Both the position numbers and the translations under genes were made by a program. The notes under the pieces are model-generated. The model made no database searches and was not told the DNA's origin. It saw only the letters and a list, made by a program, of their open reading frames with translations. Below are positions 3,471-59,028 of a stretch of DNA of 64,000 nt, one piece after another (within the stretch, counting starts at the first letter, position 1; each line of letters opens with the position of its first letter). Where the stretch lies: positions 1-64,000 of IMG/VR virus record IMGVR_UViG_3300048838_001273. One strand, 5' to 3'. The stretch is from a virus.

Positions 3471-3947
3471 TTAATTGTTAATAATAGAACCATATTTAGA
3501 TGTTATTTCATCTATTTTTTGTGATAATTCTGCATACATTGGGTCTTCGCTCTCAAATTCTTTTTCGAATTTGACTTCCAGTTCATCCATGAATGATGAC
3601 ATGTCTTCGATACTTGCCTTAACCATTTCCTCAATTTCAATTAATGTTTTTAATTGAGTATCAATCATATTGATTAAGTCTGCGATTCGCTTATTTTCTT
3701 GCTCAACCTTCTTAATCTCATTCATTTTCTTTTCATATTCCGAGTTAAGTTCAAGTGCTTCTTCTTCTGTTACGGTTTTTACTCCCGCTTCTTTAAGTCT
3801 TTTTTCAAGATTAGCTTCAGCACCACCAGTTGGTGCTATAATGTCTGCGAGTTTATCGATTTCATTTATTTTTTTTGCTGCATCCGAATTAAATTCACCA
3901 GTATCTACAGCATTCTTTAAGTTTTTTAAAAATTCTGAACCTGCCAT
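3471..3947 (-). CDS. Hypothetical coiled-coil protein
   Basis: 158-aa E/K-rich helical ORF in operon context. Confidence 0.7.
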   Translation of the reverse strand: MAGSEFLKNLKNAVDTGEFNSDAAKKINEIDKLADIIAPTGGAEANLEKRLKEAGVKTVTEEEALELNSEYEKKMNEIKKVEQENKRIADLINMIDTQLKTLIEIEEMVKASIEDMSSFMDELEVKFEKEFESEDPMYAELSQKIDEITSKYGSIINN

Positions 3948-3958
3948 TATTGTTGTTT

Positions 3959-4873
3959 TTAAATTGTACCCATGATTTCCATTTCAATTCCTTGAAATTT
4001 CCAGACCTCATGTGTGTTATTATGATTTATTCTTTTAACGAATTTAGTTATACCAAAACCTATCATTTCCCCGTATTCATTTCTAAGAAAGATTTCTTTT
4101 AAATCAATCAATTCACTGAATATCTTTGAGTTCTCTTCAATCTCATTGGTTTTGAATTTCAAAGGTACAAAAAATTCCAATTGTCTGTGTTCAAAACCAA
4201 TTTTTTTTACGTGTAAAAATTCGGTTAATTGTTCAATCTTATTTAAAGTCTCTGTATTGCTGTGAGTTGCTTGTATTGGAAATTCGAATTGTTTTGATTT
4301 ATTTTCTATGTCCTTGACCTCATACTCGTACCCCAAATCTTCCTTTTGACTTTTTTCAACAACATTAAACACTTTAGCCAGACCAACTTCAACGGGTTTG
4401 TTATTGAAAATCTGCAGTAATTCTAAATCATCGTCAGTAGTTCGTCTTTCCTTGTATTCCATTTCCAGAACCTCGCCAATTGTTTTTCCGGCATGTTTAT
4501 GTTTACCATCAAAAAAACCATAATGCTCATACCTTCTACCATATTGGTCTTTATGACCATAATTCATATGATACTTGTCGGCAGCAACAGCCATTTTATG
4601 CGGTGTTGCTGTTCTGATGAACTTATCAGCTTTCTTTAATAGTTCATAGTAATCCTTCACATACTTTTCATCCCTCTGACCAGCATAAAACCTTTCAAGC
4701 AATGGATTGTGATGCAATTTTCTTGTAGTCTTTTTCTTGCTTTCATCCAAATCATCAGGATTTGCTTTAAGTATTTCGGTTTCGGTATTATATAATGCAA
4801 TGCTGATATTTATCAAAATGCTATGAATTTTGATATATATCCAAAGGATGATTTTCTGGAAAATTTTCTTCAC
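3959..4873 (-). CDS. Hypothetical protein
   Basis: 304-aa ORF, hydrophobic N-terminus, coupled to neighbour. Confidence 0.7.
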   Translation of the reverse strand: MKKIFQKIILWIYIKIHSILINISIALYNTETEILKANPDDLDESKKKTTRKLHHNPLLERFYAGQRDEKYVKDYYELLKKADKFIRTATPHKMAVAADKYHMNYGHKDQYGRRYEHYGFFDGKHKHAGKTIGEVLEMEYKERRTTDDDLELLQIFNNKPVEVGLAKVFNVVEKSQKEDLGYEYEVKDIENKSKQFEFPIQATHSNTETLNKIEQLTEFLHVKKIGFEHRQLEFFVPLKFKTNEIEENSKIFSELIDLKEIFLRNEYGEMIGFGITKFVKRINHNNTHEVWKFQGIEMEIMGTI

Positions 4874-5424
4874 TATACTTGGTTTTGTGCTAATATTTTA
4901 TCAACCCTTGATGATTGTATTTTTCTCATTCTTTTTTGAGCAATCCCCTTTTTCTCTTCAACAATACCAAGAGCAATTGCTCTATCTGCTCTTTCATCAA
5001 GAGTTGTATTTGCCATGTAATCATTGACTTGAGATTCTACCGTGGAAATTTTACCACGCCATTTTTTAAACAATTGAATACTATCATACAGATTTCTATC
5101 AAAAAGATATAGATATGCAGTAGCAATACCATGTTTAATTCTATCCCAAATTTTGTCACCGAATGGTTGAATAATCTCAACTTCGGGTTTATTTCTTTCA
5201 TACTTAATTGCCTTGTAGAAATATTCTTTATATTTTTTTGAGGAAAGCATTGTTATAATTCTTTTACGTTCAGCATTTGCTCTATCAGTCCCATAAGAAA
5301 ATTTATTACTTTCTTTTGCTTCTTTAGTAAATAAACCAAGCAATGTTGAATCTACTGTTGCTAAGTATCTCTTAACAAAAGTATTAAAGAACCATTTTTT
5401 TAGTTTTAATTTAAGTTTTTTCAT
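4873..5424 (-). CDS. Hypothetical protein
   Basis: 183-aa basic ORF in operon context. Confidence 0.65.
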   Translation of the reverse strand: MKKLKLKLKKWFFNTFVKRYLATVDSTLLGLFTKEAKESNKFSYGTDRANAERKRIITMLSSKKYKEYFYKAIKYERNKPEVEIIQPFGDKIWDRIKHGIATAYLYLFDRNLYDSIQLFKKWRGKISTVESQVNDYMANTTLDERADRAIALGIVEEKKGIAQKRMRKIQSSRVDKILAQNQV

Positions 5425-6907: not shown

Positions 6908-6936
6908 AAAAAAAGCCAACAAAATTTGTTGGCTTT
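6908..6936 (-). terminator. Intrinsic terminator
   Basis: AAAGCCAACAAA/TTTGTTGGCTTT inverted repeat with U-run. Confidence 0.7.
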
Positions 6937-6956: not shown

Positions 6957-7364
6957 TTAGTCTTGTTTACCATCATTAGTTTCTTCCTCACTATCCTTTT
7001 TGGTATATTTTTTCTTGCCAGATGATAACTCTTTGACCTCAGATGATTTTTCTTCTTTATGTGCTACCTTCTTTTTTTCTTCTTTTTTGGGTGCAGCTTT
7101 CTTTTCGGTTTTTGGTTTTGAATTTTCTAACGCATTTGCTAATTCAACAGCACTTACTTCGACAACTGTTATTAAACCCTTAACTCTTAGTCTGTGTACT
7201 GAAAGTGGTAACGAACTTGTTGTTAAAAACATGCTATCGCCCGGTTTAACTTTAACAATTTTTTTTGTCATATCGTCCACATATTCAATATCAAGTATTG
7301 AATTATGTTTGAAATCACGTTTACCTGCCGTATTCGTTATATTTGTAATTCTGTATGTACTCAT
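6957..7364 (-). CDS. Hypothetical protein with Lys/Glu-rich tail
   Basis: 135-aa ORF. Confidence 0.7.
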   Translation of the reverse strand: MSTYRITNITNTAGKRDFKHNSILDIEYVDDMTKKIVKVKPGDSMFLTTSSLPLSVHRLRVKGLITVVEVSAVELANALENSKPKTEKKAAPKKEEKKKVAHKEEKSSEVKELSSGKKKYTKKDSEEETNDGKQD

Positions 7365-7372
7365 AGCTTTAA

Positions 7373-8206
7373 TTATTTTAGTCCTTGTATTAATGTATCA
7401 CCATATTTAATTCCATCATATCCCATTTTCATTGCTTTCTCAGCAATTGCCTTATTTTTTAAGTTAGATGATGTGGTGTTATGTTTTTTACTTAATTCTT
7501 CAAAATTGACATTTGGAAACCAAATTTTTGCCATAATATCTGCAGGTTCTTGGCTGTCTTTATATGTTACACCCAATGCATTTGTATCTAAAAGATTGTC
7601 GAATTCAATCTGATATTTACTAAATCCGGCAAGCGGTTTTAACGTAAAGAAATTACCAACCACAGAATTTTCTTTTATCGGGTCTTTTCTGTATGCAATA
7701 ATTGTTTGTTGATTACTGTTTGAGTTTTCGGTTTGAATGCTGGCATTATCTTCTTCCAATGTAGATAAGAATTCACTTCTGTCAGTGTAGTTATTATCAA
7801 TATCGTTTTCGTCATTAATGATATCATTATTTACAACTTCCTCCATGCCACTTGCTTGCTCATAATCATAAATATCCTGAATTTTATTTAAAATTCTACA
7901 AGCATCTTTCTCATTTGCCTTGATTTTGACTGCTTTAATTCGAACATTATCGAGCAAAGCACGAACCATTCTATGATGACCATCCAAAACTTTTAAATCA
8001 TCGCTAATCCAAATGGGTTTCATATCATCGAGAGAGATATTTCCAACATCATCACTAAATGTAATGCCCTGTAATGGTTGTAATTCGTTAGCATCGACTT
8101 CAACCATTTCATAATCCACACCCTCATCACCAAGTTTTTGTAATACAACACTAAATGGTGCACTAACTTGTGGAAGAAAACGTGGTTTATATCTCATGTC
8201 AATCAT
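7373..8206 (-). CDS. ParB/Srx-like domain protein
   Basis: 'LQPLQ...KPIWISDDLKVLDGHHRMVRAL' ParB-N motif. Confidence 0.7.
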   Translation of the reverse strand: MIDMRYKPRFLPQVSAPFSVVLQKLGDEGVDYEMVEVDANELQPLQGITFSDDVGNISLDDMKPIWISDDLKVLDGHHRMVRALLDNVRIKAVKIKANEKDACRILNKIQDIYDYEQASGMEEVVNNDIINDENDIDNNYTDRSEFLSTLEEDNASIQTENSNSNQQTIIAYRKDPIKENSVVGNFFTLKPLAGFSKYQIEFDNLLDTNALGVTYKDSQEPADIMAKIWFPNVNFEELSKKHNTTSSNLKNKAIAEKAMKMGYDGIKYGDTLIQGLK

Positions 8207-8230
8207 TATAATTATTTTTCTATAAATACA

Positions 8231-8800
8231 TTAAATTATAATTTTTTTTATTTCTTCCTGAATTATACACAATAAATTACGAGCACGACTTGATTCTGTC
8301 AATGCTAATGTTCCATTATTGGCAACATAAATATTGAATTCAATACCCTCCGGTATTTGACTTCTAATTGCTTCATATGCCTCAAGGTCTGTATCACGGT
8401 CTTCAAATACATCAATTATTTTTAAATCTGGAAATTGTTGAAGATACCTGAGAACCTTAACACCCTTATTGCCTTCAGCACGTTTCATATCAAGTTTATC
8501 TACCTTAATGTTATTTATATCAAGTACTGCCTGAACTTGTGGACGTAATTTTTCCATACGTGATGTCAATATTATCACATAAGAATTTGGTAATACAATT
8601 TCCTTTTTTAATTGCATTAACACACTTGGAAACGGTTTGATATCAAACACATTTAAATCCAAACTTTCAGGTCTTCCCCACCAACCTTGATACGGATATG
8701 GAGTGCCAGTCTTTTCAGACCACTGCGGTTTTCCGGTTTCTGGTTCAGGAGAATCCATTAATGTTCCATCAAAATCAAATACTGCCAATTTTGTAATCAT
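8231..8800 (-). CDS. HAD-family phosphatase (RNA-repair 'Swiss army knife' HAD-like)
   Basis: Motif I 'VFDFDGTL', 'GWW', motif II 'ILTSR', motif IV 'FEDR'. Confidence 0.8.
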   Translation of the reverse strand: MITKLAVFDFDGTLMDSPEPETGKPQWSEKTGTPYPYQGWWGRPESLDLNVFDIKPFPSVLMQLKKEIVLPNSYVIILTSRMEKLRPQVQAVLDINNIKVDKLDMKRAEGNKGVKVLRYLQQFPDLKIIDVFEDRDTDLEAYEAIRSQIPEGIEFNIYVANNGTLALTESSRARNLLCIIQEEIKKIII

Positions 8801-8807
8801 AACAACT

Positions 8808-9191
8808 TTATTTATATTCTACTTCAACTACTTTTCCAGATATTAATAATGGTCTCTTTAATTTTTGCCAATCAGTTAATTTGTTTGACATCATTGGCTT
8901 ACCACCATTTGCCCGATTTACTGCCAAGGTGATGTGTGGTTTAACATTTTTACTTTCAAATCCACTGACTCCAACAGCGATTACCTTATCGTCCATTGCA
9001 ATATCATCAACACTTAAACGCACTGGCATACCCAGAAATTTTTGAAATTCGGGGTCTAATTCACCCAAATTAATAGTCATGTGGTGTGCAATAATTTCAA
9101 ATTCAGATGGTATTATTGTTTTAAATCGATTTATTAGTCTCGTTCTGGATTGCTCATCCAGCACAACAGCACTATATGATACATTACTCAT
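8808..9191 (-). CDS. 2H phosphoesterase (2',3'-cyclic phosphodiesterase-like)
   Basis: Two HxT motifs 'HHMTINLG' and 'PHITLAV'; ATG at 9191 preferred over the longer ORF-track start. Confidence 0.75.
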   Translation of the reverse strand: MSNVSYSAVVLDEQSRTRLINRFKTIIPSEFEIIAHHMTINLGELDPEFQKFLGMPVRLSVDDIAMDDKVIAVGVSGFESKNVKPHITLAVNRANGGKPMMSNKLTDWQKLKRPLLISGKVVEVEYK

Positions 9192-9195
9192 TTGT

Positions 9196-9408
9196 TTATT
9201 TTTTATTCCATTTCCAAATATAACCACCTGCAGTCTTTCTCAAACCATTACACACTTCAGATATATGTAGAATGCCAGTTTTATTAGTTGCTTCGGTATA
9301 TGAAGAAAATTTATTTATTATTTCATTATTTTTATTCAGCATTATAACGGGTTTTGATAGCAATACACCAATTATTGGTTTTTTTTGACCTTTTAATGAT
9401 TTCGACAT
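9196..9408 (-). CDS. NUMOD1-like DNA-binding fragment (C-terminal part of split homing endonuclease)
   Basis: 'KFSSYTEA..KTG...ISEVCNGLRKTAGGYIWKW' NUMOD1/IENR1 pattern. Confidence 0.7.
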   Translation of the reverse strand: MSKSLKGQKKPIIGVLLSKPVIMLNKNNEIINKFSSYTEATNKTGILHISEVCNGLRKTAGGYIWKWNKK

Positions 9409-9779
9409 TACATCGGATTTCCACCTCCACGTCTCTTTATTTTTGATTCTTCACTCCATTTAGTGCCAAGTCTTGACTTTCCGACAGAGCAGATATTATA
9501 TCCAAAATCACGACAATTTGAATCGTATAATAATATGTATTTTCGCTCTAATTCCAATAATTTATTAATTTCAATATCATCATAAGATTCAATAATATTA
9601 AATGAAAAACCACTTTCTCCATACTTATTCCAAGCATTTTGTAATATTGGATTTTCATGTGTGTTTTTTTGCAATTGTTTCTTATGTGTTTTAAATCTAA
9701 TATCGAATGATTTTAAAGTACTACCAACATAAATTTTATTATTTATGTTATTTTTTATTATATATATTCCCACACACAT
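9408..9779 (-). CDS. GIY-YIG homing endonuclease (N-terminal part; possibly pseudogenised)
   Basis: 'GIYIIKN..NNKIYVGS', 'RFKTH', 'LQNAWNKYG', 'GYNI'; stops at 'GNPM' inside a NUMOD3-like motif. Confidence 0.8.
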   Translation of the reverse strand: MCVGIYIIKNNINNKIYVGSTLKSFDIRFKTHKKQLQKNTHENPILQNAWNKYGESGFSFNIIESYDDIEINKLLELERKYILLYDSNCRDFGYNICSVGKSRLGTKWSEESKIKRRGGGNPM

Positions 9780-9798
9780 CGCTAATTAATTCATAATA

Positions 9799-10104
9799 TT
9801 ACTCATCTTCGTTTTTCCATATTAAAATACCTGACCCATTATCAACAGTTTTTTTTATCAAATCACCATCTTTATGATATTCTATACCACAAAATCTATG
9901 TGATTCGGCAATGTATTCAAAACTAATTTCATCATATCTGTCACTTAAATCAATTACATCCAAAATGTGTTTATGATTTAAATTTCTTAATGCAAAAGAT
10001 AGTAATTCATTTTCGGTATTAACTCTTTCCAAACCGGAATATTTTCCACCATCATGCCTCGGACAATTTGGAAAATATTCAATTGAAAATACAAAGCCAT
10101 TCAT
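9799..10104 (-). CDS. Hypothetical protein
   Basis: 101-aa ORF in operon context. Confidence 0.55.
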   Translation of the reverse strand: MNGFVFSIEYFPNCPRHDGGKYSGLERVNTENELLSFALRNLNHKHILDVIDLSDRYDEISFEYIAESHRFCGIEYHKDGDLIKKTVDNGSGILIWKNEDE

Positions 10105-10118
10105 TTTGCCTCCCGATT

Positions 10119-13100
10119 TTATTGCTTTAAATTAATTCTACCTTCATTTAATATATCTCTATCATTAATAATCCAATACATTTCCTGAATTAATCTTGTG
10201 TCGTGCGAGAAATCCTCGTAGTTATTCTGCAAGAATTCAAGAATTGATGCTTTACTGACATCCCGGTATGCTGGTTTACCATTTTGATTATTCCATTCAT
10301 CATATTTTTCAACAAAAAAATGAATATCTACTTCACGTCCATTAATATTCCAAGTATAGGGTTTTTGAAAATCCCCTCTATACCCCATATATTCTTTTAA
10401 ATAATTATAATAAACGTGACCGCCTTTTAAAAATTGTGGGGCATAATCAAACTTTGGTGAGTCAACAATCTCATCATTAATTTCCTTATTTATAATTCCC
10501 AGATATCCCGTTAACCAGTCTTTTCTGTCTGGACTTAATGGTGTTACTTCAATATGTTTATTCGTTTCTCTATCATACACCCACCAGTGTTCGACAAATG
10601 ATGTGCCATATTGTATCATATATCCACCAACCGGATAATATTTTTCGGGATATGTTTTTACCATATTATAAGCATTTCTTTCACATTGTCCAGCAACACC
10701 CATTGGATTATATGTTACAGAATCTCTATCAAGATATTCAAATCCCTTTGAAATTGCCTTATCAAATATTTCCTGCTTCTGTTGATTGAACTGTAATTCA
10801 GCACTTTCAGTCAATTTTGATTTACTTCCACCCGCCAAACTTAATAATTCTTCTTTATTATTCCTAATTTTACCAGCATAAATCTTCAACAGCATTGATT
10901 TTAATGTATCACCAATCTCTTTACCCTGTAGTCCCAATGCCATTAAATCATTGCCATTAACAGCTAACTCACCCAATGTTTTTGGATATTTACCTTCCAG
11001 TAATTCCTGTGCTGCGGTTTCGATTACAGTAGGTAATATTTTACTCTGCAACGATTGCTGCGAAGTCACATACATGTTGTGCGCAATAGACCTTGCCTCA
11101 ATCGCACTCACGCTTTCAGCACCATCAAATGCCATGTCAAGTGCCTTAATTTCCTTATAGGTATCAATGTCACCCTTTAAATTATTTTTATAATAGTCTG
11201 CAGGATTCGGTAATAACCTAATTAATAAGAAAATAAACTCACCCATTGTCTGAACATCATCAAAGGGACTTCTATCAATGGTTGATTGTTTAATGTCAAA
11301 CCCAAAAATCTGATTGAATAATCCAGTGTTTTTTAATAGTTGAGCACCTGTCAACATATTACCCTTTTTGACAATTTTATCAAATTCTGTCAAAATTCTT
11401 TCAGCAGGTATTTCTTTAATTCTACTTGCGTTCTCCTGAATCATTTTCATTGTAACAGGTTCAATAGTAAAACCAAAACGACTTGCGAATTGAACTGCAC
11501 GCAGCATACGCAACGGGTCATCACTAAACGCTTCCGGGTTGACTATACGAATAATTTTATCCTTTAAATCCTGTTGTCCACCATAAGGGTCAACAATATT
11601 ACCATTAACATCTTTTGCAATAGCATTAATGGTAAAATCTCTGCGTTCCAAATCTTTCTCAATTGGTAATGCATGGTCTGAACTTACTTCAAAACCCTTA
11701 TGACCACCATCTCCGGTAGGTTTTTCGGTTCTTGGAATTGCGATATCAATTTCTTCACTCGAACCCTTTGACTTGAATTTTAATATACCAAACGATTTAC
11801 CGACTGCATCAACACGACCGTATTGACTGAGAATTTGTTCCAGTTCATCCATTGAAATACCAGTGATAAGTACATCCAAATCCTTAGATTCTTTACCCAA
11901 GAATTCATCACGAACAGCACCACCAACGCTGAATATTTTACCCCCACGTTTTTCAACTTCAGGTTTAAATGGTAATTGTTCTAATGACATTATTTGTGCT
12001 TCGTTCATATTTTCTCTATTATTGTGAACTTGTTTCCATATACATCTGTGAAATTCGTCATATCCCAATTCCCCACCTAATTTAATAATTGGGTTTGATT
12101 TTATTTCCAAATTGATTTTCAACGGCAAATTTAATACTTTTGCAGCATAAAACCTATGGTGTCCGTCCTCAATATAGAAATTTTTTCCATCGAAAGACAC
12201 ATCTATCGGTTCTTCGAGACTCACCTTTTCAGCATATTGTCTGTCAGTCAATCCTTTATGCTTAATTTCATATTTAACATTTTCGAAATCATCTTTCCAT
12301 TTAATTGAAAGTTTATCCGGTGTTATAGATTTTAATGTGTCTTCATTAAATCCAAAAGCAGCCATATCCAACATGTCTGTTGGAATTCCACCGCTTCTTA
12401 AAAGTTTTTCATCTGAATCGAAACCAGCAACATAATTTTTTATTTCATCTGTTATTCGTATTTCATGACAAGCTGGTTTCTGATTTTCCGTTAAGTTTTT
12501 TTTCTTTTTAATTAAAATCTCTTTATTATCTACGGTATATTCATATCCATTTGGTATGTTTTTTATCACGTATTGTAGATACAATGAAAACCTTCTTTTA
12601 TCATCAACACTTTTAGTTTTAGTGGGTTCAATAACAACAATATCGGGATTTTTTTCAGCAAAAAACTGCCTGATTAATTTTATTATCGTACCCATTACTT
12701 TATACATTCTGCCTTTATTCACAACAGCAATATAAACCTGTGCTGGATTTTTATAATCCAAAATACCGAAATCTATTCTCCACATATTTTCTGTTTCATC
12801 TCTCACGAATTCCAGAAAATATTCATCATTGTCTTCAGTTGTAAATTTGTATATTTTAACCAATTCATCGTCTCTTTCAGTCGTGACCTGATAATCACCA
12901 ATGTTTCCTTCACCCACCTCATTTATTGATTCAGCGAAGTCTTCATAATCTTCAGGTGATTTTTCTGGTATAACAGGAACTTTACTTCCATACTTTCTAC
13001 GAACATATTCGTCAATTGTTGCTTCTCTATATCCTAACAATCCACCTATTTCTCTTGCTTCTTCAGGAGTTTTATCGCTTAGATACCCACCATGACTTTT

Positions 13101-16100
13101 AGCAATTGCGTATAGTCTTTCACCTTTTACTTTATCTCTGAAAACAACACACATCATTGAAGACCGGGATGCCATTCTTACAGGTAAAATTTGTAATCCG
13201 TGTTTTTGAATTTTACCTGCATTATCTTTATTAACCTCAATAAATGCAACATCTCTTTTACCGGACAATAGTGTTTTTAATGCGCCTTGGTCTGTATATG
13301 CTTCGCTTGCATCGATTTCTTCACTTAACATCGAATTACTCCATTGTTTAGTCAAAATTAGATAACCACCATCACCGTCTTCGCCAATAACTTCACCACT
13401 TATATCAAATTCTTCTATATCTGAAAAATCTGGTTCTTCTGAATATCTTTTAGCGTCTTCAAATGTTTTTGTTACCCAGACTATATCACGAGCATTATAC
13501 TTATCTAACTCCTTGAGCATTTCATCACTTATATGTTCGAAATCCCCAACATTTCCTAACTCATCACGCTCAAATCTCACCACATCACCAGCAGTAGTAC
13601 CACGACTATTGGTATAATTAGAATTAACACGATATCCTTTTCCAGAATATGTTTCTTCATTTAATTTCGTACTTTTTGGTAACCTATACATTAACTGCAT
13701 TGTCTGGAAATCCTTGTTCTTGCCTTTATTCATTACGAACCCCAAAGAACCATACCATGCCTTTAACTTAGCTACGCTTGCACCCCAAACATTATCAGGT
13801 GTTAATGTAATAATTAAATTATTATTATCGGCATATTCCAATATTATATTCATGGCAGCATTGGCGTAACCTTTGCCTCTGAAATTCTTGTCAATTATAA
13901 TCTTATCAATTGCAATATAGTGGTTATTCCCCTGTATGCCTCTATCTACAATACCTACACTACCAACAACCTGACCATCATTTGTTATCTGAAAAGAATC
14001 ATATCCAGAAAGTTTAGTCGGAATGTTAATTTTAACTTCCTCACTAATTGAACCAAATTTCAAATTATTAATATCGCCTTGATTACAAGCAACACTGGTA
14101 TTACCCAGACCACCTAATCTACACTTTTTTTTTACTTCTACAGATTGTGCTCCCGGCATATATGATTTCTTCCTGTCTTCATTATACATTGCAGAATTAG
14201 CACCAACATTATTTTCTATTGATGGTGATGTATCGTTTTGATTATATGCAGGAAATCCATCTTGACCCAAATCGCTGTCTGTTGAGAATTTAGAACTACC
14301 ATCTTCTGTTACTTCTATTTTCTCAAGGTTCTTTGGTTGTAAAAAACCATTTCCAAATCCCACATCAAAGAAACCCAAAGCACCGTTCTTTTTGTAACCT
14401 AAATTGCTGTGATTTAAGTAATCCATGCTTTGTATACCATATGATTTCGTTTCTTCTGCGATTCGAAGTAAACCACCAAAAAACTCAGCATCCTGTGAAT
14501 TCTTTTTAAAGTATGAATCTATTTTGTTTTTATCTACTTTTGGATTATCCCACTCACCGAGATAGTGTTCAATCACATCTGGAATACTAAGACCCAATAT
14601 TTTTTCAAATGCAAAATCTAATCTTTTATATAGTCTTTCAATGTTTGGGTCAGTATCTAACTTCTCCAAGATAATTGCATATGTTTTAGGTATTGTAGTG
14701 TTTGTCTTAGCTTCAATTTCATAGACTTTATATGGCTGCGCAATATATTTTAAAGGTATACCTATAAGCATTAAATTTTCTGCTGCCTCACTATTATCTT
14801 TAGTGATTTTTAGTACTTTATCGTTACCGATATCATAAGCAACACCAAAATTACCACCCTTCATTGGTGTGACGTTTATATTTAACTTAGCTGCAACTTG
14901 ATTGGCAATTCTGTCCGCAAGATTTCTATCATAGTCTTCAGAAATCTGACTCTCTTCTAATCTAATAATATTATCTCCAATGTTTGGTTCTTCTGCCTTA
15001 TAACCACCGATATCGAAATACGTCAATACTCCGTCTTTATATCCAAGATTTCCAATTGTTATATAATCAGTAGACCTTATATCATAATCAAGTAGTTCTT
15101 GTCTTATATTTAATATTCCAAGAAGATAATTAAATGCATATTTTCTATCTATTTCATCTACATTTGCTTTCGGGTTTTCCGTTAACACAAGTTTAGCTAT
15201 CTCCAACGCTTCATCATAATTAAATCTTGTGGCTTTTTTTATATAGATTAATATATCTTCATATGTCATGCCGTTTGGCATTATGTTGGTTATGTCATTC
15301 TGATATTTTCTTATTTTTTCAAGAGGCTTGTCTTTTATATTTTCTTGAATTATTGCATAATATGCAACATTTTTTTCGGTATCGACAACCTTATATATTG
15401 CAAATGTTTGTGCAAGATATTTAGGATTACCACGCATTAGTTTTAACGAAGAATCTGCTTCACTTATGTCTGAAGTTATTTTTATTATTCTTTCATTATC
15501 TAACTCAAACGCAAATCCATATCCACCACCACCCATGTATGTTGGTTTAGGTAATTTTAAATATTCTGCTGCACTATCCGCTAATTCTTGGGCATAGGCT
15601 CTATCGTCCAAACTAAATGGTTTAACGTTTGGGTCGGGTTTTTCTTGTTCAACAATACTATATTCATCTAAATCAATTGGGTCTCTATCATAAACTTTTT
15701 GTTGAATAAGGTATTCTTGTAATTTTAATAGATTTTTATAGAATTTTTTATTATCATCTACACGATTCAACACTTCCTTTAAGTTATTTACTGTATCGTG
15801 GAAATTATCTAAAAGATTCGGAATACCAGAAATCGGTTTTTGTGGATATTTATCCCTGTTTAAGACGAAATTTATAAATTCTTCATTAACCATTCCATCA
15901 CCGTCACCAACACCATAAGGTGTTAATGCCCACATTCCCTGACGAATAACTGTTGTATCTCCTATATCTGAAAGTATGTCATCATTACCATGTAAATTAT
16001 TGTAGATTTCATATACTCTATATTTTTCCTTACGTTGTGGATTATAATGTGTATCATATACCTCATCGTTTAATCCATAGTCAGTAAGAACAATAGTGGG

Positions 16101-16643
16101 TTGACCATTACGTAAAACTTCACCATATGAACTTGGTCTGCCGAAATCTCCGGGTGATTGATTATAGTTATGCATGAGATTTTGTAAATCTTGTGCAAAT
16201 TCATTCTCGTAAAAAAATTCAACGGTTTCAGGTTTTTGTCCAAATATTGCTCTCTTACCTTTATTCTGTTCATAATCATTTCTGAGATAATAGTACAAAT
16301 CGTTTAAACTCGGAATTCCGGTTAACTCTTTAATTCTTTTTTCAGTAACCTTTTTACCTTTTTCCGCAACAATCCAAGCACCATCATTATCAAATTCAAA
16401 TATTTTAGTTACAATATCGTGTGTATCTTGATATCTACCAACATCAGATTCTGCATCATTTTGTGCTGCACCCTTTGTGTTTTTAGCTATTTTAAACACC
16501 TTTTCGCCATCAATGTCATAGACAATTCTACCACTACCACTACCTATTCTCTGTAAATATTGGTCGGCAAATTTAATTTTACCAGCGAAAGATTTGATTT
16601 CTTCGAATTGGTCTAAGAAATTTAAAAACTCATCGTATGTCAT
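10119..16643 (-). CDS. Giant multidomain (polyvalent) protein: three kinase-like domains, GNAT, possible ART-like, ParB-like, CCA-adding/tRNA nucleotidyltransferase, C-terminal Cys-His (transglutaminase-like) domain
   Basis: Kinase-like GxGxxG..K..DxG x3 (~14350-16550); GNAT 'FRGKGYA...WYGSLGF' (~13680-14010); 'IEDGHHR' (~12150); class II nucleotidyltransferase 'VGGAVRD..DLD', 'DLERRDFTINA', 'DDPLRMLRAVQF' (~10840-11995); 'CERNA...HWWV' (~10400-10790). Confidence 0.85.
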   Translation of the reverse strand: MTYDEFLNFLDQFEEIKSFAGKIKFADQYLQRIGSGSGRIVYDIDGEKVFKIAKNTKGAAQNDAESDVGRYQDTHDIVTKIFEFDNDGAWIVAEKGKKVTEKRIKELTGIPSLNDLYYYLRNDYEQNKGKRAIFGQKPETVEFFYENEFAQDLQNLMHNYNQSPGDFGRPSSYGEVLRNGQPTIVLTDYGLNDEVYDTHYNPQRKEKYRVYEIYNNLHGNDDILSDIGDTTVIRQGMWALTPYGVGDGDGMVNEEFINFVLNRDKYPQKPISGIPNLLDNFHDTVNNLKEVLNRVDDNKKFYKNLLKLQEYLIQQKVYDRDPIDLDEYSIVEQEKPDPNVKPFSLDDRAYAQELADSAAEYLKLPKPTYMGGGGYGFAFELDNERIIKITSDISEADSSLKLMRGNPKYLAQTFAIYKVVDTEKNVAYYAIIQENIKDKPLEKIRKYQNDITNIMPNGMTYEDILIYIKKATRFNYDEALEIAKLVLTENPKANVDEIDRKYAFNYLLGILNIRQELLDYDIRSTDYITIGNLGYKDGVLTYFDIGGYKAEEPNIGDNIIRLEESQISEDYDRNLADRIANQVAAKLNINVTPMKGGNFGVAYDIGNDKVLKITKDNSEAAENLMLIGIPLKYIAQPYKVYEIEAKTNTTIPKTYAIILEKLDTDPNIERLYKRLDFAFEKILGLSIPDVIEHYLGEWDNPKVDKNKIDSYFKKNSQDAEFFGGLLRIAEETKSYGIQSMDYLNHSNLGYKKNGALGFFDVGFGNGFLQPKNLEKIEVTEDGSSKFSTDSDLGQDGFPAYNQNDTSPSIENNVGANSAMYNEDRKKSYMPGAQSVEVKKKCRLGGLGNTSVACNQGDINNLKFGSISEEVKINIPTKLSGYDSFQITNDGQVVGSVGIVDRGIQGNNHYIAIDKIIIDKNFRGKGYANAAMNIILEYADNNNLIITLTPDNVWGASVAKLKAWYGSLGFVMNKGKNKDFQTMQLMYRLPKSTKLNEETYSGKGYRVNSNYTNSRGTTAGDVVRFERDELGNVGDFEHISDEMLKELDKYNARDIVWVTKTFEDAKRYSEEPDFSDIEEFDISGEVIGEDGDGGYLILTKQWSNSMLSEEIDASEAYTDQGALKTLLSGKRDVAFIEVNKDNAGKIQKHGLQILPVRMASRSSMMCVVFRDKVKGERLYAIAKSHGGYLSDKTPEEAREIGGLLGYREATIDEYVRRKYGSKVPVIPEKSPEDYEDFAESINEVGEGNIGDYQVTTERDDELVKIYKFTTEDNDEYFLEFVRDETENMWRIDFGILDYKNPAQVYIAVVNKGRMYKVMGTIIKLIRQFFAEKNPDIVVIEPTKTKSVDDKRRFSLYLQYVIKNIPNGYEYTVDNKEILIKKKKNLTENQKPACHEIRITDEIKNYVAGFDSDEKLLRSGGIPTDMLDMAAFGFNEDTLKSITPDKLSIKWKDDFENVKYEIKHKGLTDRQYAEKVSLEEPIDVSFDGKNFYIEDGHHRFYAAKVLNLPLKINLEIKSNPIIKLGGELGYDEFHRCIWKQVHNNRENMNEAQIMSLEQLPFKPEVEKRGGKIFSVGGAVRDEFLGKESKDLDVLITGISMDELEQILSQYGRVDAVGKSFGILKFKSKGSSEEIDIAIPRTEKPTGDGGHKGFEVSSDHALPIEKDLERRDFTINAIAKDVNGNIVDPYGGQQDLKDKIIRIVNPEAFSDDPLRMLRAVQFASRFGFTIEPVTMKMIQENASRIKEIPAERILTEFDKIVKKGNMLTGAQLLKNTGLFNQIFGFDIKQSTIDRSPFDDVQTMGEFIFLLIRLLPNPADYYKNNLKGDIDTYKEIKALDMAFDGAESVSAIEARSIAHNMYVTSQQSLQSKILPTVIETAAQELLEGKYPKTLGELAVNGNDLMALGLQGKEIGDTLKSMLLKIYAGKIRNNKEELLSLAGGSKSKLTESAELQFNQQKQEIFDKAISKGFEYLDRDSVTYNPMGVAGQCERNAYNMVKTYPEKYYPVGGYMIQYGTSFVEHWWVYDRETNKHIEVTPLSPDRKDWLTGYLGIINKEINDEIVDSPKFDYAPQFLKGGHVYYNYLKEYMGYRGDFQKPYTWNINGREVDIHFFVEKYDEWNNQNGKPAYRDVSKASILEFLQNNYEDFSHDTRLIQEMYWIINDRDILNEGRINLKQ

Positions 16644-16696
16644 GTGTTAAATTATAGTATATCCATAAATACAAACTTAGTAATAAAAACATTAAG

Positions 16697-16725
16697 AAAA
16701 AAAGCGCAATTGTTATTGCGCTTTT
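16697..16725 (-). terminator. Intrinsic terminator
   Basis: AAAAGCGCAAT/ATTGCGCTTTT inverted repeat overlapping the stop codon of 16713..17408. Confidence 0.6.
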
Positions 16726-17408
16726 GCTTTGTTTTTTTGCTGTATTTCTCGAATGGTTTCTATAACCACAGTTTTTATCATTTCTCGATTTTCTTTGAGC
16801 ACTTCCTTAATACGCTCAACAGCATACATTTCAATAATAGTGTCTTTAATTGCTTCTTCGAAGATAGGTCCTAAATTTTCACTTAAATAACCATTAACGA
16901 TTTTTTTAACATTCTCAACCAAAACGCCTTCATTGATTGTTGAAAGACCACCAGTAGCTGGAGGTGTGGTTAATAATTTTTGACCATTATAATCAACATA
17001 ATTACCTTGATTTGTTCTTGGCTGTGCACCAGTGAAACCTTCAATAGATTCTGCTAATGTTTGTTTTCTTTTTCTTTCGATATCAACAAATAATTGCTCG
17101 TCTCTTTCCGGTGACATATCAATGGGTTCGGTTCTATGTACTGGTTGTTGCACCGGGGCAACAGGCTTTACATCATGTCTTGCAACCTCACCTTTACGCA
17201 ATGCAGCTTTATTATCAACAGTCTTAACTAAATTGCTTGATGCAGTATCCCTACCAGTATTCAAAGATTCAATCAATCCATTTAAAAATGTATCTCGTGG
17301 TGCAAGATTACCACCAACTTTTTCACCGAATGGTGATTGTACCATATTTTTTTCTCTTTTACGAGATTCAATTTCACTTTTTATTTTACTTAAATCTGGT
17401 TTTGCCAT
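16713..17408 (-). CDS. Hypothetical protein (candidate head/core protein)
   Basis: 231 aa, several L/I-x-E motifs, GTATTTATA upstream. Confidence 0.6.
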   Translation of the reverse strand: MAKPDLSKIKSEIESRKREKNMVQSPFGEKVGGNLAPRDTFLNGLIESLNTGRDTASSNLVKTVDNKAALRKGEVARHDVKPVAPVQQPVHRTEPIDMSPERDEQLFVDIERKRKQTLAESIEGFTGAQPRTNQGNYVDYNGQKLLTTPPATGGLSTINEGVLVENVKKIVNGYLSENLGPIFEEAIKDTIIEMYAVERIKEVLKENREMIKTVVIETIREIQQKNKAKAQ

Positions 17409-58776: not shown

Positions 58777-58781
58777 TTTTG

Positions 58782-58854
58782 TAGCGGGAGAGGGATTCGA
58801 ACCCCCGACCTCTTGGTTATGAGCCAAGCGAGATACCACTTCTACCATCCCGCA
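58782..58854 (-). tRNA. tRNA-Met(CAT), initiator-like, CCA not encoded
   Basis: Acceptor UGCGGGA/UCCCGCU (1:72 mismatch), anticodon arm CUUGG-CUCAUAA-CCAAG, T arm GGGGG-UUCGAAU-CCCUC. Confidence 0.85.
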
Positions 58855-58892: not shown

Positions 58893-59028
58893 TGGGGAGA
58901 ACAGGACTCGAACCTGTAATCTATTGATTTCAACTCAATTGCTTTACCTTTACTGAAAACACTACGAGTTCTCTCTGTGAAGAGAGCAGTGAGATAGTAT
59001 TTCTTGTTTTTGTTTTTGCTATCTCCCC
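58893..59028 (-). ncRNA. tRNA-like RNA unit D with ~65-nt insertion in the D-loop
   Basis: Acceptor GGGGAGA/UCUCCCC; T arm ACAGG-UUCGAGU-CCUGU; anticodon arm AUUGA-GUUGAAA-UCAAU; insertion carries GUGUUUUCAGUAAA. Confidence 0.75.

Follow-up and report, generated by a model that had tools for sequence, protein, structure and literature searches.

In the first 64 kb of virus record IMGVR_UViG_3300048838_001273, which is 78.9 kb long (this whole 64,000-nucleotide stretch is hereafter referred to as the window), there is a minus-strand locus in which the gene for a giant protein with a tRNA nucleotidyltransferase domain lies upstream of genes for a small 2H phosphoesterase and a small HAD phosphatase. 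The source of the record is an uncultured giant phage. The window has a GC content of ~32% and nearly all of its genes are on the minus strand; the record has an estimated completeness of 22%, with the full genome at roughly 350 kb. In the order of transcription, the locus comprises a 2174-aa giant open reading frame (ORF), an inserted ORF (orf101), a GIY-YIG ORF, a NUMOD ORF, the 2H gene, the HAD gene, and two genes referred to as p277 and p135. An earlier note on this DNA, made from its sequence alone, had proposed that the CCA-adding domain near the end of the giant protein acts with the 2H and HAD proteins in the repair of tRNA 3' ends, and the analyses described here concern that proposal. 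Related loci and related proteins carry labels of this analysis (L and P numbers, respectively), and G001 and G003 are the records of complete relatives.

The giant ORF (10119..16643, minus strand) was defined from the ORF list, Pfam, PHROG and its translation. Its product carries three kinase-like Gly-loop repeats, a GNAT domain (residues 883-998) and a ParB-like DGHHR motif, followed by the CCA-adding domain and a C-terminal region. The CCA-adding domain, which is of class II, spans residues ~1556-1936 (10836..11978, minus strand) and was recognized by Pfam, PHROG, NCBIfam and its solved relatives. In Pfam it matched the PF01743 PolyA_pol head (82.7 bits) and the PF12627 PolyA_pol_RNAbd neck (56.3 bits), as well as PF13735 tRNA_NucTran2_2 at a score of 24.2 bits that is under the cut-off of 27. 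The match to phrog_2244, tRNA nucleotidyltransferase, had an E-value of 2.4e-67, and the top solved relative was the Bacillus CCA-adding enzyme (1miv). Intact GGAVRD..DLD, RRDFTINA and DDPLRMLRA motifs are present in the translation and also in the alignments to 1miv and 6ibp, and the domain has both the head motifs of class II enzymes (GGxVRD...DxD, RRD, (E/D)DxxR) and the RNA-binding neck. These data bore out the placement of a CCA nucleotidyltransferase near the end of the giant protein.

Sequence is a poor guide for telling class II CCA-adding enzymes from bacterial poly(A) polymerases, which raises the alternative that this nucleotidyltransferase is instead a tailing polymerase, of the poly(A), A-adding or another kind, and joins the 2H and HAD proteins in remodeling the ends of an RNA other than tRNA. 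Consistent with this alternative, the matches to NCBIfam models were all below their equivalog cut-offs, the PcnB and A-adding models also matched the head and neck, and PDB entries named poly(A) polymerase scored just slightly below CCA enzymes. However, the top NCBIfam profile was the Bacillus-type CCA tRNA nucleotidyltransferase PRK13299, which aligned over positions 15-389 of 396, body and tail included, with 179 bits (cut-off, 290 bits), whereas the PcnB poly(A) polymerase profile aligned over the head and neck only, with 112 bits. The Pfam tRNA_NucTran2_2 match to the tail, and the need of this phage clade for CCA addition to ~47 of 55 tRNAs (see below), also stand against a tailing polymerase. 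On these sequence comparisons CCA addition is favored over poly(A) synthesis, and we regard a tailing polymerase acting on some other RNA as very unlikely.

The earlier note had also described the CCA domain as having no obvious HD domain, and this held: there was no HD-family Pfam match to the giant protein at E <= 0.01, and the Escherichia coli-type Cca model NF008137 aligned to the CCA domain over positions 2-207 of 409 only. The HD domain of E. coli-type Cca is described, in a passage of PMC10673834 that cites Yakunin 2004, as having 2',3'-cyclic phosphodiesterase and 2'-nucleotidase/phosphatase activities, and the removal of cyclic phosphates from the ends of tRNAs is its presumed role. 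The phage enzyme and E. coli Cca share the class II head and neck, and the set of activities on tRNA 3' ends proposed for the phage module is the same. It differs in that it has no HD domain, the phosphoesterase steps being assigned to 2H and HAD folds that are encoded by separate genes here and fused in relatives, in that its body and tail appear to be Bacillus-type, and in that it is embedded in a 2174-aa multidomain protein. The 2H and HAD pair appears to stand in for the HD domain of E. coli Cca without being homologous to it.

Past the CCA body and tail, the giant protein has a C-terminal region of ~238 aa (10122..10835, minus strand), delimited by tblastn and blastp matches labeled "Ct". 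Its last ~75 residues are conserved and directly precede the 2H domain in fused relatives; a search of the ESM Atlas with this region gave sub-threshold leads only. The CCA part of the protein is constant among relatives and the N-terminal modules, which make up two thirds of the giant protein, vary. Some relatives carry just CCA proteins of ~620-750 aa (L011, L017, L023, L024). Across loci L001-L035, the region corresponding to the N-terminal ~1550 residues (window positions 12000-16643) consists of shifting modules, including unknown segments that we call "Mid", that have been gained, lost or duplicated. At one locus on a 144-kb metagenome contig (L069, 8409-10741), CCA residues 1-91 are fused behind a 2H domain and residues 88-389 resume ~1.1 kb downstream in another ORF; this interruption could represent an intron, an intein-free split or a mobile-element insertion within the CCA gene.

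The giant protein resembles the polyvalent proteins (PMC5512222) in its very large size and its shifting enzymatic domains, among them kinase-like, GNAT and ParB-like modules, with 2H in relatives and ART-PolyVal in one 2H relative. In contrast to what is described here, the account of polyvalent proteins never mentions a CCA-adding domain and interprets the 2H domains as RNases or as enzymes that degrade signals.

Two insertions lie between the giant gene and the 2H gene, in agreement with the earlier note, which had described an inserted ORF and a homing endonuclease in this position. The first is orf101 (9799..10104, minus strand), which has a homologue at the same position in a relative (L074) and had no family match in Pfam or PHROG. 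The second is a free-standing GIY-YIG/NUMOD homing endonuclease (9196..9779, minus strand) that is split into a GIY-YIG ORF of 123 aa (9408-9779) and a NUMOD ORF of 70 aa (9196-9408), with a one-base overlap between the two (TAATG). The GIY-YIG ORF matched PF01541 (3.7e-11) and homing endonucleases in PHROG. In five relatives (L005, L045, L046, L054, L094) the endonuclease is intact as one ORF of ~220 aa at the same site, and relative to these copies the window endonuclease is without ~26 linker codons. Based on the split into two ORFs and the loss of these codons, the endonuclease of the window is probably decaying. The CCA-2H and 2H-HAD intervals range from 0 to ~4 kb among relatives, which suggests that the gaps between the CCA, 2H and HAD genes are insertion hot spots for mobile genes.

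The 2H gene (8808..9191, minus strand) encodes a minimal protein of 127 aa; homologue alignment indicated that its true start is the ATG at 9191 and not the GTG at 9227. The two HxT motifs, H37-M-T39 and H86-I-T88, are nearly invariant (at least 90% conserved in 58 relatives). The sole passing Pfam match was PF08302, the cyclic phosphodiesterase (CPD) domain of the fungal tRNA ligase Trl1, and this was the only 2H match in Pfam for the window copy and for its relatives, some of which matched more clearly (up to 31 bits). Single-sequence and profile searches of PDB sequences gave nothing meaningful for the 2H and HAD proteins, and structure prediction was therefore needed for both. No NCBIfam model matched either small protein.

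The AlphaFold2 (AF2) model of the 2H protein, which was built on the family alignment, had a predicted local distance difference test (pLDDT) score of 96.7. The model has the two HxT motifs on the pseudo-symmetric two-lobe beta-sheet fold of the 2H superfamily, with matches to 2H-family folds at Z-scores of 4-13. All top matches to the model in a Foldseek search of the PDB were the catalytic domain of CNPase. VIA-wide, a structure aligner independent of Foldseek, likewise aligned 124 of the 127 residues to the CNPase catalytic domain (Z 13.3; root-mean-square deviation [rmsd] 2.1 A) and gave much lower scores for other 2H families, namely a Burkholderia phage phosphodiesterase (Z 7.5), Acb1 (Z 7.2) and LigT (Z 5.7). 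The protein is closer to CNPase and the Trl1 CPD than to the LigT, Acb1, AKAP7/ns2 or Usb1 clades, the next family being at Z 7.5. The top matches in BFVD were giant-virus proteins of 765 and 771 aa, one of which is named RNA ligase, and their size suggests that they are Trl1-type tRNA ligases.

Together, the motifs and the predicted fold identify the 2H protein as a minimal CNPase/Trl1-CPD-like enzyme, a predicted RNA 2',3'-cyclic phosphodiesterase. It shares with the CPD of fungal and plant Trl1 and with vertebrate CNPase the two HxT motifs, the best fold match within the 2H families and the PF08302 match. It differs from them in its size (127 aa, ~60% of the CNPase catalytic domain), in its low identity (~10-14%), and in that its partner at the locus is a CCA-adding enzyme rather than a ligase or kinase. 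Enzymes of the Trl1 CPD and CNPase type are described, in passages of PMC7145591 and PMC6379707, as converting 2',3'-cyclic phosphates to 3'-OH/2'-PO4 ends, and by analogy we infer that the product of the phage enzyme would be a 2'-phosphate.

A quite different role for these two small proteins was also considered, in which the 2H protein is an Acb1-like destroyer of immune signaling nucleotides (of the CBASS or 2'-5' oligoadenylate type) and the HAD protein is a nucleotidase, neither acting on RNA ends. In favor of this role, Acb1, likewise a small 2H protein of phages, has about the same size and is among the fold matches, and a signal-degrading or RNase role has been proposed for the 2H domains of polyvalent proteins (Iyer et al. 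2017, PMC5512222). However, the fit of the 2H model to Acb1 (7t27; Z 7.2, rmsd 4.1 A) was far poorer than its fit to CNPase, the Acb1 entries of BFVD ranked far below the giant-virus proteins (E-values of 7e-4 to 2e-2), and the only Pfam model that passed was that of the Trl1 CPD. The repeated fusion of 2H domains to a tRNA nucleotidyltransferase, described below, would also be hard to explain. We therefore find an Acb1-like role most improbable.

The HAD gene (8231..8800, minus strand) encodes a DxDGT phosphatase of 189 aa, probably of the HAD_SAK_1/Pnkp-phosphatase type, as judged from its motifs, the Pfam matches of its orthologues and its AF2 model. HAD motifs I-IV are conserved (DxDGT, with D9, D11 and T13; T79/S80; K112; D134), and motif I is separated from motif II by a distinctive conserved insert, GWWGRPESLDL. 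The HAD_SAK_1 family comprises the "Swiss Army Knife" HAD phosphatases of RNA repair. Three orthologues passed the PF10307 HAD_SAK_1 model (25.7, 27.8 and 31.1 bits), and above-cut-off HAD_SAK_1 matches were present in the genomes of three of four complete relatives. The AF2 model (pLDDT 93.9) places motifs I-IV on the Rossmann-like core of the HAD superfamily, with HAD folds matching at Z-scores of 10-13.6. Both Foldseek and VIA-wide ranked the same two phosphatase domains first, namely that of Pnkp1, a component of the Pnkp1/Rnl/Hen1 RNA repair complex (Z 13.6), and that of T4 Pnkp (Z 13.3 and 12.8). The motifs and confident models of the 2H and HAD proteins confirmed what the earlier note had assigned to these two genes.

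The likeness of the phage HAD protein to T4 Pnkp, Pnkp1 and HAD_SAK_1 proteins thus lies in its DxDGT acylphosphatase motif, its four HAD motifs, its top structural neighbors and the passage of PF10307 by its orthologues. Unlike T4 Pnkp and Pnkp1, it has no polynucleotide kinase (PNK) in the same chain, it carries the GWWGRPESLDL insert, and the window copy is under the PF10307 cut-off. The 5'-OH kinase and ligase partners of the T4-type Pnkp and Pnkp-Rnl-Hen1 systems were not found in the phage contig. The DxDxT phosphatase of T4 Pnkp heals cyclic-phosphate and phosphate ends (PMC3592404), and on the strength of its motifs and model the phage protein is a predicted RNA-end 2'/3'-phosphatase. 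Forms of ~300-410 aa with a C-terminal extension also occur (L003, L004, L012; P0164, P0173, P0198), one of which has a faint ART-PolyVal match (E 0.14). The relatives of ~300 aa were considered as candidate 2H-HAD fusions and ruled out, as their C-terminal extension is unrelated to 2H.

In the window's clade the gene order is DNA polymerase, p208, NUDIX, p299, p231, giant/CCA, 2H, HAD, p277, p135 and glycosyltransferase, and this order was identical in 25 of 25 IMG/VR loci (contigs of up to 365 kb). The earlier note had called for a check of synteny in related phages; by itself, though, synteny within the clade proves little because these loci are close relatives. The argument from linkage rests instead on fusions.

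The 2H sequence was searched exhaustively against 1.8 billion representative proteins, giving 1086 matches at E <= 1e-3, and domain architectures were read in the best 150 of these (50%-identity representatives). Forty of these best 150 carry a CCA domain in the same chain, as CCA-2H (35), 2H-CCA-HAD (3), CCA-2H-HAD (1) or 2H-CCA (1). Of the remainder, 80 were stand-alone 2H proteins, 3 were 2H-HAD or HAD-2H proteins, and 27 had 2H with other or unrecognized parts. No 2H-ligase fusion was recognized among the 150 representatives or in 114 loci. Several of the fusions were checked in the DNA as single open frames under the standard code. For example, a single ORF of 1507 aa in a 357-kb record (L026) holds GNAT, CCA, 2H and HAD in frame, and CCA, the C-terminal region and 2H are in one frame in L031 and in more than 20 metagenome loci. 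In a second phage lineage (L036-L041), an ORF of 694-705 aa encodes 2H-CCA-HAD and none of the window's neighboring genes are present. At one of these loci (L040) the fusion ORF (8001-10085) has its strand to itself and is surrounded by small phage genes, with a gene for the tRNA-His guanylyltransferase Thg1 at a distance of 6 kb. Even where CCA identity falls to 33-38%, 2H is still beside CCA (L077, L096, L103, L106, L114). Because the three domains stay together through repeated fusion, fission and reordering, these comparisons of sequences provide good evidence that they work together.

Scans of viral contigs with two of the 2H-CCA-HAD proteins (P0293 and P0328) gave no match, and such loci were found by the metagenome scan; no deposited phage covers at least 80% of the triple fusion. 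Atu_ph07 was considered as a further case of linkage and rejected, as its distant 2H homologue is 8.5 kb from the CCA gene, which is too loose to count. The surroundings of the L040 fusion contain the Thg1-type gene (phrog_4717, 5e-85) and a phrog_388 nucleotidyltransferase, at 15903-16745 and 3845-4939. The second lineage thus clusters enzymes for both ends of tRNA.

Based on the domain identities, the predicted folds and the fusions, we consider it probable that the locus encodes a three-enzyme pathway acting on tRNA 3' ends, in which cyclic-phosphate or phosphate ends are healed and CCA is then added. The 2H protein would first open a terminal 2',3'-cyclic phosphate, the product in its closest structural relatives being a 2'-phosphate and a free 3'-OH. 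The HAD protein would then strip the remaining 2'- or 3'-phosphate, and the class II CCA domain of the giant protein would finally restore the missing C, C and A. The substrates would be the 3' ends of tRNA, and perhaps of tmRNA. The central proposal of the earlier note, in which the 2H and HAD proteins do joint work on tRNA 3' ends in place of the absent HD domain, holds at the level of sequences and models, given the fusions in several orders, the CNPase/Trl1-CPD type of the 2H protein and the probable Pnkp/HAD_SAK_1 type of the HAD protein, and its support is now much stronger than the adjacency of the genes would give. Metal-independent RNases leave cyclic phosphates, and the purpose of the pathway may be to reverse damage to tRNA tails by such RNases of the host during infection.

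Several observations weigh against this pathway. In the window the three genes are separate and are interrupted by a mobile element. The window 2H protein passes PF08302 marginally (23.2-23.5 bits, cut-off 23), and the window HAD protein, at 14.4 bits, is under the 25.6-bit cut-off of PF10307. The lead of the Pnkp structures over other HAD structures is ~1 Z unit, and the fold alone leaves the HAD substrate unfixed. The scores of the nucleotidyltransferase below every NCBIfam equivalog cut-off leave the choice between CCA addition and A-adding or poly(A) activity unsettled by sequence. Other fusion partners of the 2H family are a PNK-like P-loop kinase (P0382), a second type of HAD (P0335) and ART-PolyVal (P0249), and judging by these partners 2H is a general end-healing or polyvalent-protein module. 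Finally, bacterial defenses that clip the CCA tails of tRNAs exist, such as Cas12a3 (PMC13594972), and the RuvC site of Cas12a3 would be expected to leave a 3'-OH. Since such ends need neither 2H nor HAD for healing, the relevant attackers would be metal-independent RNases.

The tRNA genes of the window and of its relatives bear on a rival explanation, namely that there is no dedicated pathway: the CCA enzyme would mainly mature the phage's own tRNAs and tmRNA, the 2H and HAD proteins would be general healers that feed Rnl1, Rnl2 or RtcB ligases, and their adjacency would reflect the clustering of RNA-repair genes. The window has a tRNA-Met gene (58781..58854, minus strand) that has no encoded CCA (it ends ...GCTA-C-AAAAAG) and whose product is a likely substrate of the CCA enzyme. 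The complete relative G001 (363 kb, the record of L009) has 55 tRNA genes covering all amino acids, as well as a full-length tmRNA (Rfam, 101 bits). CCA is encoded in 8 of these 55 genes and absent in 47, and 28 of the tRNA genes end in C then AA. The tRNA arrays are at about 195.9-237.4 kb (L124-L126), and twelve tRNA spacers are of 12 nt or less. In Rfam searches at the gathering threshold, only tRNAs and the tmRNA were found in 60 kb of this relative's tRNA arrays, with no known ribozyme, and only tRNA was found in the window. Because 47 of the 55 tRNA genes of this relative and the tRNA-Met gene of the window are without CCA, a second job of the CCA enzyme, which the earlier note had missed, is very probably to mature the CCA-less tRNAs of the phage itself. 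Just upstream of the tRNA-Met gene, at 58901-58954 on the minus strand, Rfam gave another tRNA-like match, a partial one of 29.4 bits that covers model positions 9-63; ARAGORN does not call it.

The maturation of tRNAs by RNase P and exonucleases leaves 3'-OH ends, for which neither a 2H nor a HAD protein is needed, and maturation therefore does not explain the two partners of the CCA enzyme. Under the rival explanation these partners would serve ligases. Rnl1-like and Rnl2-like ligases are present in three of the four complete relatives (349-365 kb) and RtcB in the fourth; among the ligase genes of the complete relatives are those at 343324-343797, 212448-212993, 276-782 and 258628-259101 in G001 and at 348880-349941 in G003. 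The ligases of the complete relatives could also use healed ends, which is a further point against a pathway dedicated to CCA addition. No PNK-type kinase and no RNA ligase was found in the window's contig, which represents ~22% of the genome. The absence of an RNA ligase from the window had been taken in the earlier note as evidence that the acceptor end, rather than the anticodon, is the target. Given the small part of the genome that the contig covers and the ligases of the relatives, this argument fails.

In the jumbo-phage survey (Iyer et al., PMC7824862), 2H proteins, SAK-family HAD phosphatases and CCA-adding enzymes are listed as separate RNA-repair parts, and the 2H and SAK-HAD proteins are read as healers for ATP-grasp ligases; the P-loop kinase fusion noted above agrees with such a general healing role. 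However, the ligases of the relatives are all more than 100 kb from the CCA/2H/HAD locus, the recurring fusions are to the CCA enzyme and none to a ligase was seen, and the 2H domains of polyvalent proteins never accompany ligases (Iyer et al. 2017, PMC5512222). For these reasons we judge it unlikely that the locus has no dedicated pathway.

Attack on tRNA is a common last-line defense of bacteria, and the known answers of phages are spare tRNAs and the ligase-based repair of anticodon loops. If the heal-then-add-CCA pathway is correct, this ligase-independent set of enzymes would add a third phage answer, one directed at acceptor ends. A very large 2H family (1086 representative clusters at E <= 1e-3, almost all of them annotated as "hypothetical") would then gain a function, and there would be a case in which a 2H-plus-HAD pair has taken the place of an HD domain. 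We speculate further that the module is a widespread, self-contained and previously undescribed machine of huge phages for the repair of tRNA tails, often a single chain and the non-homologous counterpart of the HD domain of bacterial Cca, which reverses acceptor-end clipping by host defenses or toxins that leaves cyclic phosphates and which, in the window's clade, is delivered in a variable polyvalent giant protein and acts from the first moments of infection. This broader proposal is possible, and we offer it tentatively. The 127-aa 2H protein, as an unusually small and well-predicted CNPase-like catalytic core, may interest enzymologists.

A megablast of the region against GenBank phages gave no match, and the DNA polymerase of the window is without a close cultured relative. 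Phage genes flank the locus and include those for baseplate wedge subunits, a family B DNA polymerase, a helicase-primase, a NUDIX hydrolase and a QueC-like protein. A simple consensus scan identified terminator-like hairpins just upstream of the giant gene (16700..16725, minus strand) and after p135 (6912..6936, minus strand), and no further terminator-like site on the minus strand from 16700 to 6936. The hairpin at 16700-16725 is the likely upstream limit of the transcription unit, and because strong minus-strand hairpins occur only at 16725-16700 and 6936-6912, a single transcription unit may extend from the giant gene to p135 inclusive.

Gene p277 (7373..8206, minus strand) is directly downstream of the HAD gene throughout the window's clade and p135 (6957..7364, minus strand) is downstream of p277; both genes are conserved, and this synteny is always found in the clade. 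The two genes are probably co-transcribed with the module. They are absent from the second lineage, and for this reason they are probably not core parts of it. The DGHHR regions of p277 and of the giant protein had no Pfam match at E <= 0.01. This motif, typical of ParB/sulfiredoxin-like domains, is present both in p277 and near residue ~1480 of the giant protein.

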